Part shown: positions 22,498-63,106 of the stretch, piece by piece
How the letters are laid out: every line of letters starts with the position of its first letter
Numbering within the stretch: position 1 is the stretch's first letter
Source: Octopus vulgaris
Lineage: Eukaryota
Direction: 5' to 3'
DNA length: 64,000 nt
Assembly: GCA_951406725.2 (NCBI GenBank)
Contig: OX597840.1
Location: 18,228,001 to 18,292,000 of the forward strand
Notes under the pieces: model-generated
Seen by the model: only the letters and a program-made list of their open reading frames with translations
Database searches by the model: none
What the model was told of the DNA's origin: nothing
Position numbers and translations under genes: made by a program

Positions 22498-22500
<3 letters not shown>

Positions 22501-22782
22501 TTGTTTTTTCATTACTGTTTTCAATTTCGTTTTCGTCTCTTGTATTCACATCCGTCTTGTGCGTTCACATTCCTGTCTTCTACCAAGAAATCTAATGCTT
22601 ACAGCTTAGTTTTTTTTCTTGGGGCTGGCCGAGTTGGAGCAAATATCAGAATTGAACAGCCGAAATTTGCTATGATGATTCGGTGTCTGACTGAAGATTG
22701 AAGGCTTCGAATGATTTGTCTGTGTTCCGTGTTCGTCCCTTCCTGTATTTCACGTTCATTATATATAAAAACATTCATTCTT
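22498..22782 (+). mobile_element. (TA)n-inserted element, family C (other copies about 34910-35492 +, 62916-63228 -)
   Basis: Shared AATCTAATGCT..AGCTTAGTT..CTTGGGGCTGG..GAAATT..CTGARGA..CTTCGAATGA blocks. TA tracts on both sides. Confidence 0.8.
22623..22697 (+). ncRNA. Candidate permuted (pseudoknotted) hammerhead, family C copy 1
   Basis: ggctg-g-ccgagtt-gga-gcaaa-TA-tcaga-attgaa-cagcc-GAAA-tttgc-tatgat-gattcgg-tg-tctga-CTGAAGA. Confidence 0.6.
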
Positions 22783-23573
22783 ATATATATATATATATAT
22801 ATAAAGTTAATCCAAACAAGAAAACAAAAAAAACACAACAACGCGAGGACGTGGAACAAATATAGTATTATTGGACGCTCAGGAAAGATGGGAAGAAGGA
22901 ATACATACATATGTCTATATAATAAAGAGAAATAACCTCTATTAAATAATTCAATTGATAGTGAAAGATATCTTTATTTAATCATATAGAAAACATTTTT
23001 AATATATTATAATAAATATTATTCTAAAAATCTCTAAATTAAATAAACATTAAATCAAGTTTGGAATTTTATATTCCCTACTATTATTAATCAATTATAT
23101 ATAGCAGTTAAGCACACACACACACCCCATCTTTTACATACACATATTCACACAGAGTTGAAACGTTGTTTGATTTATTTTTTCAGCGTACATCATCCCA
23201 CTACCAAGTATAACATCACCCCTTCCTTCCATATTCATCTGTCACCCCCTTCCTTTGTCAGCCAGCCATAAACACAAGAGTATTATTATAGTATATTATC
23301 TCGGTAACCATGGGAGCTATGAAAAAAATACCGGATCATTCTACACATCTGTGTAATTTTTCCCGTAATTCCACCCAGCCATTTGACCATGAATCGCTCA
23401 TGTCGAATTTATATATATATATCTTTTATCTTTTATTTGTTTTAGTCATTAGACTGCGGCCATGCTGGGGCACCGCCTTGAAGAATTTTTGGTCGATTGA
23501 ATAAACCCCAGTATTTATTCTATCGGTTTCTTTTGCCGAACAGCTAAGTTACGGGGACGTACACAAGCATAAA

Positions 23574-34911: not shown

Positions 34912-35303
34912 TTGCTCCACTTTTCACTTCACTGTGTCCCTGTCATTTTTTCTCGCCCCTCCTTAATTCTTCTGTCCCTCTGTCTCTACTTCTCTCTTAT
35001 CTTCCCATGTGACCGGCGTTCAGCCAAGCCTGATCTTTCTTTCTTGGTCTGGCCGTCGTCCGTGCAACATAGATATTCTTCCCTGTGCCTGTGAAATCTT
35101 GTATCTCTGCCGTAAGGCTTCATTTCCACACACGCCAGCTTAATTTAATTCGTTCTTAGTCGAAAGACACCTGTTGTTATGTCCTGTTATTATGTTTATT
35201 GCATTTATGTAACATTGCCTGTTTTTTTTTCGTCCTTGTTTTTGTATACATCCGCTGCTTTCTTCCAAGGAATCTAATGCTCTTAGCTTAGTTTTTTTCT
35301 TGG

Positions 35304-35376
35304 GGCTGGCCAGATTGGAGTAATCTCGAGTATAATCAGTCGAAATTGCGAGGATTATCTGGTACTCGACTGAGGA
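35304..35376 (+). ncRNA. Candidate permuted (pseudoknotted) hammerhead, family C copy 2
   Basis: ggctg-g-ccagatt-gga-gtaa-TC-tcgagta-taat-cagtc-GAAA-ttgc-gaggatt-atctgg-tactcga-CTGAGGA. Confidence 0.62.
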
Positions 35377-35709
35377 AAGAAAACTTCGAATGACCCGTCC
35401 TTGTTTTCTTTGTAACTGGATGTTTTGTTGTCCCATTTTTGTATCACCTAACTGCCCGGATGTTTTGCGTTCTTGTCCTATTTTGTATTTTATACATATG
35501 TGTGTGTGTGTGCATTATTTACTCCAAAACGATTACCAGTTTGCTCTCGGTTAGGCATTCAAAATATGTTATTCAACAGTTAATATATAAATCCAATGAA
35601 GTTCCTGTATGATACCAAATTAGATGAATATTCCGTTGGATAATTATGAATATATTTCCTTAACCAAATAAGTTTCCTGGAGTTCAAATATCGGTATAAG
35701 GATTTGCTA

Positions 35710-35775
<66 letters not shown>

Positions 35776-35959
35776 GGGCAGGTTTACGAAAATAAACAAA
35801 AGACGAAGACAGGTGGAGTACAAACAAGCAATTGTATTAGTATGGCGCTCAGGAATAGAAATAGAACAAGTCTTTTACGTTTCGAGCCTACGCTCTTTGA
35901 CAGAAAGATACACAGAAAAGAAACAAGGAGAGAAAAAAATGCGTGTAGGAGCTAACGGT

Positions 35960-37894: not shown

Positions 37895-39360
37895 TCTAAT
37901 TTAAACACAAGGCCGCCAGTTGTAACTGTTGGAGATTAGTTGATGCTATGGAACCCAGTTCTTGATCGGTACTTTGTTTTTATCGACTTCAAAGAGACGA
38001 AAGACAAAGTTGCCCTCGGTGGAGTTGGAACTCAGAATGTAAAGCGCTGAATATATACCACTAGTTCAAAATTAAAGAAATCACAAAGATATGGTGAAAG
38101 AACAACAAACATGGCGTATGAAGTTGTCTTTCAGGAAAAATGGAAGAAGATTTTGATGTTTCGAGCCTACGCTCTTCTTCAGAAAGGACAGATGAGGAGA
38201 GAGAACAATTGGAGGAGAAAAAAGAACGTGTCTTACGTGTTTTCTCTAACATAGGTACAAGGCCAGAAATTTTAGGAAAGAAAGTTAGTTGAGTACATCG
38301 ACCCTAATAATTAACTGGTACTTTATTTTATCGACTCCAAAAAAGGTAAGCAGTAAAGTTAGTCATATTTGAATTCGAACTCAGAACATAAGTGATATAA
38401 AATGTCGCAAGGTTGTTTTGGCCGATGCTCTAACGATTCTATCAATCCATCACCTAACTGTTGACATAAAAACCAATAATTTTGAGGGGAGGGACTAGTT
38501 GATTACTTCGACCCCAGTACCTGACTGGCACTTTGTTATATCCACCCCGAAAGGATCAAAGACAAAGTTGACCACGATAGCAGTTGCTTAGCTAGCGTGG
38601 TGCTGTCGTTCGCGGCACTTTTAATGGGGGCTGCACATTTGGGTCGGATAAGAATGCATAGGTTTGGGGTCCTGTGAGGCGGCAAACGTAAAATTGTATC
38701 GCGCGGCAAACACGATTAACCAACTTGAACTCAGAACGTAAAGGGCCGGAAGAAATGCCGCTGAGCACTTTGTCCGAATTTCTAATGATTTTGCCAGCTC
38801 CCCAGGTTGATAAAAACCTACCAATAACGGTTCGTGATTCTATTAACCCCAGGTCCTGAAGGCTACTTTGAATTATCGGCAATTGAATACTGAAAGGCGA
38901 AGTCGACCTCGGCGAAATTTCAGCTCAGAAAGCAAAGAACCGGAAAAATACCCTACAAAGAATAACACCCTACTTGAATTTTGGCTCAAGGCCAACAATT
39001 TTGATAGGAAGGGGAAATCAATTATATACCCCCCATACCTCGCCAGTGTTAAAATGATACTTATCTTATCGACCCCCGGAAGGATTAAAGGCAAAGTCGA
39101 CCATGGTGGAATTGGAACTCAGAATGTAGTCCTACAAAATATAGTCCTTTCTACTGGAAGCACAAGGCCTCAAATTTGGGGAAGGGATTAAGTCGATTAC
39201 ATCGACTCTAGTGCGTAACTGGTAGTTATTTAATCGACCCCGAAAGGATGAAAGGCAAAGTCGACCTCGGCGGAATTTGAACTCAGAACGTTGAGGCAGA
39301 CGAAATTCCGTTAAGCATTTTGCCCGGCGTACTAACGTTTCTGCCAGCTCACCGCCTTAG
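37895..39360 (-). repeat. Head-to-tail cluster of diverged family 2 SINE units
   Basis: AAAGTCGACC/GAACTCAGAA blocks recur about 6-7 times in the same orientation. Confidence 0.75.
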
Positions 39361-60562: not shown

Positions 60563-61098
60563 GGTACAGGACGTCATAAAACGTAAACAACATGAAATAC
60601 GAAAACCTGGAATACGAACTTTTTTGCGAACAACGAAAGAAACAAATGGAAAACAAGACAAGTAACATAAAGAACGACCCTTCATCAGTTGTCGGCTGTT
60701 TTATCTACTCCTTATTTTGAGCAATTACAAGATGTCTCTTCGAGATAACAGTTCCTCCCGAAAAAGCAAAATAAATTTAGGATTTGTAGAGGGTCAAAGT
60801 TGATAACAAAAACAGGACAGTGAAAAGAAACAGTAAGGGTTGCTAAGGCATAACGAAGTGATGTGACGAAGGCTGGAAGAACAAGCTTTGACAGGAGATT
60901 TTACCGTCTTTGATCGTCCGCAAATCCCAAATTTTATTTTGCTTTTGTAAGAGCAACTGTTTTCTCGAAGAGTCATCTTGTCGTAATTGCTCGAAATGTG
61001 GAGTAGATAAAGCAGCCGACGACTGATGAAGAGTCGTTGCTTATGTTTCTTGTCGTATTTCGTATTTCGTGTTGCTTACGTTTTATGACATCCTGTAT
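60563..61098. mobile_element. Fold-back (TA)n-associated element, family E
   Basis: Diverged inverted arms, about 60564-60799 and 60908-61097. Confidence 0.75.
60951..61029 (+). ncRNA. Candidate permuted (pseudoknotted) hammerhead, family E; degenerate mirror copy at 60682-60757 (-)
   Basis: gagcaa-ctgttttct-cgaagagt-ca-TC-ttgtcg-taa-ttgctc-GAAA-tg-tggagt-agataaagcag-c-cgacga-CTGATGA. Confidence 0.6.
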
Positions 61099-63033: not shown

Positions 63034-63106
63034 TCCTCAGTCAAGCCCCAGATTATCATCGCAATTTCGGCTGAATATTCTTGAGATTGCTCCAATCTGA
63101 CCAGCC
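63034..63106 (-). ncRNA. Candidate permuted (pseudoknotted) hammerhead, family C copy 3
   Basis: Minus strand: ggctg-g-tcagatt-gga-gcaa-TC-tcaag-aatatt-cagcc-GAAA-ttgc-gatgat-aatctgg-gg-cttga-CTGAGGA. Confidence 0.62.

Follow-up and report, generated by a model that had tools for sequence, protein, structure and literature searches.

A candidate hammerhead ribozyme opened between A9 and G10.1 in octopus repeats and at the 3′ ends of animal retroelements

We analyzed a window of 64,000 nucleotides from the Octopus vulgaris genome (GenBank assembly GCA_951406725.2, contig OX597840.1, positions 18,228,001 to 18,292,000 of the forward strand). A direct reading of the letters at 35304–35376 (+) finds every base of the hammerhead core, together with four helices that cross one another, within 73 bases, with the catalytic strand discontinuous between A9 and G10.1. 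Sequence comparisons across families make catalysis by this rewired class likely. On balance, and with less assurance, we favor a fuller reading in which the motif is an active hammerhead outside the six-order scheme and a common, overlooked 3′-end ribozyme of animal retroelements, found in at least five phyla and two unrelated element classes. It would then be the missing ribozyme of many Naiad elements and the first hammerhead tied to LINEs of the restriction-like-endonuclease (RLE) type, and it would release, and perhaps self-circularize, the unit RNAs of a large, partly very young octopus retrozyme-like family.

The chain opens with the 5′ arm of stem II (a, GGCUG, 35304–35308 (+)), whose first base, 35304, is G10.1 and has no continuation from A9. 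The 5′ arm of an extra helix follows (b, 35310–35316 (+), with CCAGAU at 35310–15), the equivalent of the stem I–II interaction helix of type SGC hammerheads. Next come the stem III arm with the cut-site bases (c, 35320–35325 (+); GUAA at 35320–23, U16.1–C17 at 35324–25, triplet AUC) and the stem I arm after the predicted cut site (d, UCGAGUA, 35326–35332 (+)), the latter read from the letters and the family alignment. A 4-nt linker, also read from the letters (35333–35336 (+)), leads directly from stem I to the other stem II arm (a′, CAGUC, 35337–41 (+); C11.1 is 35341). The core block G12–A13–A14–A15.1 (GAAA, 35342–45 (+)) is followed by the stem III partner of c (c′, UUGC, 35346–49 (+)), the second arm of the extra helix (b′, 35356–35362 (+), with AUCUGG itself at 35357–62), the stem I partner of d (d′, UACUCGA, 35363–69 (+)) and C3–U4–G5–A6–G7–G8–A9 (CUGAGGA, 35370–35376 (+)), after which no stem II arm follows. 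By analogy with known hammerheads, the predicted cut lies 3′ of C35325. An earlier sequence-only reading had proposed this segment order, and each segment, from a, b, c+UH and d through a′, GAAA, c′, b′ and d′ to CUGAGGA, stands where it was claimed when the letters are checked.

That reading had also held that descriptors for types I to III would miss the motif, and they do; Rfam at its gathering threshold likewise gave no match in the 64-kb window or in 13 related loci. A canonical interpretation combining CUGAGGA, the downstream hairpin and GAAU was rejected by eye and by an intact-block scan, as it has no stems I and III to match. Elsewhere in the window, short minimal hammerhead-like motifs of canonical order occur in other repeat families at about 38150–38190 (−) and at 35860–35900 (−); one of the two has A6 changed.

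The 35304–35376 copy is slightly decayed. Compared with the majority sequence of its repeat family, which we call family A, G-U replaces G-C at 35305/35340, U-G replaces C-G at 35321/35348, and U-U occupies 35316/35356, where the majority pairs; these three changes favor misfolding. A non-pseudoknot folder picks a different hairpin for this copy, burying the core CUG (z = −1.4), and because such a folder cannot form pseudoknots, energy alone gives the fold of this copy no support. The copy is probably weaker than its family, and the chances that it cuts well seem about evenly balanced. Hairpins at 35263–35305 and 35376–35418 flank the motif on both sides, and the former, into which two stem II arm bases can be drawn, might act to insulate the fold or to switch it.

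The sequence-only reading took the reversed order NUH–GAAA–CUGANGA to be undescribed, which is wrong: it is that of type SGC, validated by Eckert et al. 2023 (PMC10085705) with its reversed block order, short stem I–II linker and extra helix. Type SGC cleaves at 0.007–0.19 per min and needs all four stems (PMC10085705). Of the claimed novelty, the reversed order, the linker and the extra helix thus fall to type SGC, while the opening inside block C and the animal retroelement setting appear to be new. Like type SGC (HRIMA-1 and its variants), the rewired motif has the order S-G-C, a complete core, a linker of ~3 nt, an extra helix and no hairpin-closed stems. Unlike type SGC, it carries its stem II and helix arms 5′ of block S, and its A9 has no following G10.1; the intact block C of type SGC, with a stem II arm within 0–2 nt after A9, is the feature it lacks. 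Eckert et al. 2023 assume that block C cannot be broken, and CUGAUGA(U)G immediately ahead of stem II is a requirement of their SGC search patterns (PMC10085705). The SGC RNAs come only from metatranscriptomes, with none in the genomes of known organisms (PMC10085705), whereas the rewired motif occurs in animal retroelements.

Type CSG, with two sequences, both metagenomic (PMC10085705), permutes the same reverse-order ring circularly and keeps block C intact. Types I, II and III (CGS, GSC and SCG) have the canonical cyclic order and hairpin-closed stems, and the rewired motif has neither. With the minimal or canonical type I forms of Penelope-like elements and non-LTR retrozymes, as described in PMC4209133 and bioRxiv 10.64898/2026.07.22.740005, it shares its place in the terminal repeat of a tandem-forming retroelement and its proposed role. 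The tolerance of an unpaired base at the stem II 5′ end is also shared (PMC4209133). Both sources describe type I forms as canonical in order, hairpin-closed, weak in stem III and dimer-dependent, whereas the stems of the rewired motif are stable and it should be able to act as a monomer; the part of the bioRxiv report covered here treats type I alone. Natural hammerheads tolerate an extra base between A9 and G10.1 (PMC1636495, PMC4209133), and the descriptors of Eckert et al. (PMC10085705) likewise allow one after A9. A search of the full-text literature, with figures and bioRxiv supplements outside its scope, found no description of a hammerhead, natural or engineered, opened at A9/G10.1.

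A descriptor requiring at least 7, 5 and 4 pairs in stems I, II and III matched in 0/150 dinucleotide shuffles of the window; a looser version (5/4/3) matched in 2/150, versus three matches in the real window. With one copy recognized later, the window holds four motif copies from three families. Besides 35304–35376, these are a second family A copy at 63034–63106 (−), found as a descriptor match; a family D copy at 22623–22697 (+), with triplet AUA and core CUGAAGA, whose helix b and stems I and III covary; and a decayed family H copy at 60951–61029 (+), from a family with compensatory stem II changes in the upstream arm. Pattern searches of the microsatellite-rich 2.8-Gb genome returned 167, 458, 4856, 1446 and 3218 matches versus 8, 0, 204, 668 and 4 for the respective reversed-pattern controls. 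The genome scan in this strand order that the sequence-only reading proposed exposed additional families in which this order is combined with different stems.

All four helices covary. When 26 motifs are aligned with plain MAFFT, paired cells make up 84.8% versus 57.3% when shuffled and 33–53% with slid partners, and two-sided changes number 147 versus 47 in shuffles; 0/500 shuffles reach the real values, figures that stand as support and not as probabilities because the motifs were picked by descriptor and are related by ancestry. Helix b shows two-sided changes in all five of its counted pairs. Covariation across many families thus bears out the complete core with four helices opened at A9/G10.1, as well as the picture in which a short linker fastens stem I to stem II and b/b′ serves as a strut.

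Twenty-eight non-redundant complete motifs show several pair types per stem position, and stems I, II and III abut the core. G stands at 10.1 in 28/28, though the descriptor does not require it, and the G10.1–C11.1 position holds 26 G-C and 2 G-U pairs. Cut-site triplets are GUC (12), GUA (8), AUC (3), GUU (3), UUC (1) and AUA (1). The core positions C3-U4-G5-A6-N7-G8-A9, G12-A13-A14-A15.1 and U16.1-H17, which the descriptor does require, are present in 120 motifs. Helix b comprises 5–11 bp and follows the stem II arm at 0 nt in 22/28, as a contact that would draw stems I and II close to each other. Two of these 28 rows (L227 and L141) were parsed with too distant an arm.

The stem II partner was examined in 28 non-redundant motifs by placing helix b without looking at stem II and comparing with 1000 partner swaps. 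The upstream arm forms at least five Watson-Crick pairs in 12/28 motifs (partner-swap mean 0.9, maximum 5), and the downstream bases do so in 0/28. At least four pairs form upstream in 14/28 (mean 3.1, maximum 8), the half below this mark being decayed single copies or cases of a mis-picked b, and downstream in 2/28. These counts indicate that the upstream arm, and not a downstream one, forms stem II. Across the 28 complete motifs, no helix closes the A9/G10.1 break; pairing there equals the null.

Family A is dispersed: a first look gave 3438 candidates, and the 40 scored are, leaving aside the query copy itself, 89–93% identical. Its full unit is non-coding and ~767 nt long, ends in (TA)n, and occurs also as partial tandems and inverted pieces. 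Copies share a common 3′ end at about 35499, before the (TA)n, and vary in 5′ truncation, the copy that carries our motif being 5′-truncated (34915–35499 (+)). The partial tandem or inverted, 5′-truncated copies and the microsatellite target match the description of Penelope-like elements in PMC8557442.

Across 55 distinct family A copies, the majority sequence makes all 23 pairs Watson-Crick, and the stem I pair 35328/35367 is A-U in 31 and G-C in 16. Identity is 96.5% in the core, 92.8% in the stems and 95.2% in the flanks, and 11/55 copies are fully intact. We thus saw no selection on the core among these 55 copies, which decay evenly; genomic copies decay neutrally after insertion.

No ORF was found in 30 family A loci or 30 family D loci searched for an autonomous partner, and family A was not tied to a Naiad or any other ORF in its 30 loci. 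A Penelope-type RT-endonuclease ORF beside L047 and L167 was considered as the driver and rejected; it is encoded on the opposite strand and has the appearance of an independent insertion. An uninterrupted 410-aa frame with a Penelope-type RT end and C-terminal endonuclease occurs at L193:5892–7124 (−) and also beside L047; it is nearly identical at the two loci and may belong to a recently active autonomous element. By inspection, the start points of upstream partial copies in families A and D form no clear cluster at the cut site. Genomic copies continue for ~175 nt beyond the cut site, which means that the RNA being copied is not just the 5′ cleavage product.

Family D was 100% identical over 156 nt in 40/40 scored matches, many of them in head-to-tail tandems of 700–720 nt; the identical copies on many contigs indicate a very young, retrozyme-like and recently mobile family. 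The element (window 22498–22790 (+); L103–L132) is non-coding, ~700–720 nt long and forms arrays of up to 4. Tandem arrangement was seen in families A and D and at a LINE locus, L207. Family H carries its stem II arm at a constant distance upstream, and the arm and its partner vary together (GAGCA/UGCUC, GAACG/CGUUC, GAAGG/CCUUC). Stretches of at least four Watson-Crick pairs occur upstream in 9/24 loci, several of which are 5′-truncated, versus 1/24 downstream. Across 15 copies (14 of the 24 loci and the window copy), 91.5% of cells pair, two-sided changes number 25 versus 9.4 in shuffles, and, with the upstream arm as partner, 3/5 pairs of stem II show changes on either side. A reading of family H as intact type SGC or GCS was ruled out, the upstream arm being the covarying one.

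Naiads are reported in Craig et al. 2021 (PMC8557442) to be without canonical hammerheads, with unexplained cores flagged. We read the last 400–450 nt of 53/54 published consensi (PMC8557442 File S5) by eye, with no computed search, and found the rewired topology in 11/53: Bfor, 3_Chem, Amil, Aacu, Anas, 2_Movir, Plae, EuTe, Obim, Ovul and Esco. Stem I of Bfor has only 2 bp, and Aacu and Esco each have one stem II mismatch. By eye, and with phyla taken from PMC8557442, the 11 represent some eight independent families from five phyla. Five of the 11 carry the published ‘HHR_core’ or ‘HHR_half_core’ flag; the flagged cores, which fit no stem/loop descriptor according to PMC8557442, are very likely the same sequences, for which a structure is proposed here. 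In the octopus genome, a separate family has a 3′ end nearly identical to the published octopus Naiad consensus ends, and one locus (L310) has an RT-end-like frame and then a Naiad-type motif.

Other Naiad 3′ ends carry other structures. The nematode Naiads 1/2/3_Nbra, Hcon, Hpol and Asuum show, by eye, intact type CSG hammerheads with an interaction helix, six 3′ ends that link type CSG to the rewired form. A twister-like motif, also read by eye, occupies the same position in 4_Chem, 1_Movir, Mgal, Bpla, Mphi, Scon and Mmer; the sharing of this position suggests interchangeable self-cleavers. In further Naiads (1/2_Chem, CGi, Sglo, Olur, Tgra, Pmar, 1/2_Skow and 1/2_Pfla), a conserved structured motif (CGGGUG ... 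GCAG ... UGCUYAC ... CACCUG) stands at the ribozyme position; it spans a hydrozoan, bivalves and hemichordates and is a candidate for another self-cleaving RNA. The arthropod Naiads Ptep, Smim and 1/2/4_Dst have CUGANGA after a C run in a hairpin-like helix that fits no block order.

In two more families, E and F, the motif comes after the end of an ORF that bears CCHC and restriction-like-endonuclease (PD..D/ExK-like) motifs. Full-length relatives of this ORF are RT proteins, whose best relative of solved structure is the R2 protein. From the CCHC and PD..D/ExK-like motifs, we take these families, and the metagenome loci below, to be candidate HERO-like elements. An alignment of seven proteins of the family E/F type fetched 80 metagenome loci, of which 45 were counted; the other 35 either had no ORF end or fell short of 150 nt of UTR and were dropped. 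The motif is present in 29/45 of these LINE 3′ UTRs from other organisms, on the sense strand and 5–612 nt after the ORF, a count that includes three near-duplicate pairs. Among the same 45, the reverse strand gave 0, the ORF region 0 and 20 shuffles 0–1; most of the 16 misses show, by eye, a one-base-damaged or cut-off copy. A scan of the sense strand in all 80 loci turned up no intact-block hammerhead, whichever of the six orders was considered, indicating that the rewired motif fills this place. A full-text literature search, with Repbase Reports and subscription journals outside it, returned no report of hammerheads in such LINE 3′ UTRs.

At L207, with assembly joins taken as given, a full LINE lies directly behind the 3′ end of a preceding copy, motif included. 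The RLE LINE loci L207, L209, L215, L223 and L236 repeat part of the 3′ end before the 5′ end, and these pieces resemble the pseudo-LTR tandems of Penelope-like elements. The motifs of LINE family E (L135–L157) and the acanthocephalan Naiad_Plae have identical stem I and stem II letters, hinting at motif exchange between retroelement classes or at a strong preference.

Hammerhead chemistry is carried out by G12 and the G8 2′-OH, and stems II and III stack. We propose that the rewired motif is a fourth arrangement of the reverse-order, non-circular family, in which the 3′ tail of type SGC is joined to the 5′ end and the ring is opened between A9 and G10.1; the moved tail would supply the stem II arm and the interaction arm, with helix b directly after the former and before the stem I arm. 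Stems II and III would stack, with stem I beside stem II and held there by the short I–II linker and helix b. Together these would keep G10.1–C11.1 under A9 without a backbone link, and the core would cut 3′ of C17 (C35325) by the usual G12/G8 chemistry. In each type of carrier (Naiad Penelope-like elements, LINEs with RT and restriction-like endonuclease, and non-coding tandem elements of ~700–770 nt), the motif is near the 3′ end. Its most likely role would be to cut unit-length RNAs out of read-through or head-to-tail transcripts. Arms of three helices (II, b and III) would remain on the 5′ product, so a released monomer could keep its two ends paired, and these might re-join into a circle.

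We weighed this proposal against three others. Little can be said for a chance arrangement in a repeat-rich genome beyond the free choice of strand order by the sequence-only reading and the preference of the non-pseudoknot folder for another fold at 35304–35376; the window-shuffle, LINE UTR and alignment controls exclude it, the motif recurs with unrelated stems in two unrelated retroelement classes, and we give chance next to no credence. An ordinary intact type SGC or dimeric hammerhead, with stem II drawn from downstream bases or a second copy and the upstream arm incidental, is very unlikely. Bases roughly 5 nt beyond A9 could give families D and C 3–4 pairs, family H could form 4 downstream pairs with two wobbles, and tandems permit pairing in trans. 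Against it, the downstream bases of family A cannot pair (0–2), the downstream side never reaches five pairs in the 28 motifs, family H pairs mainly upstream at a fixed offset and with compensatory changes, and pairing in trans would not restore the A9–G10.1 link.

The more serious competitor, still improbable in our judgment, is a hammerhead-derived multi-pseudoknot, non- or barely catalytic, whose core is kept for shape as a 3′-end signal for the element's RT/endonuclease. LINE proteins recognize their own RNA behind the ORF end, and the motif stands 5–612 nt behind it; that genomic copies extend past the cut site and that the A9–G10.1 link is missing also fit. A shape signal sits poorly, however, with the retention of all catalytic positions while every stem changes, with N7 and H17 varying as in active hammerheads and, by eye, with intact type CSG or twister-like motifs at the same place in other Naiads. 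The explanation we regard as quite probable is a self-cleaving ribozyme whose cuts reduce head-to-tail transcripts to unit length.

If this is true, the motif would break the stated hammerhead rule that block C is uninterruptible and would offer a new nick position for ribozyme design. RLE LINEs, which are related to the R2 elements employed in genome engineering, would also acquire a candidate 3′ ribozyme. Eukaryotic genomes would gain their first non-circularly permuted hammerheads, and the animal hammerhead count would rise by thousands per genome, missed by every current descriptor and Rfam model. The proliferation of Naiads, reportedly without hammerheads, would become directly testable, with monomer-competent candidates that have stable stems and, in one family, identical tandem copies.
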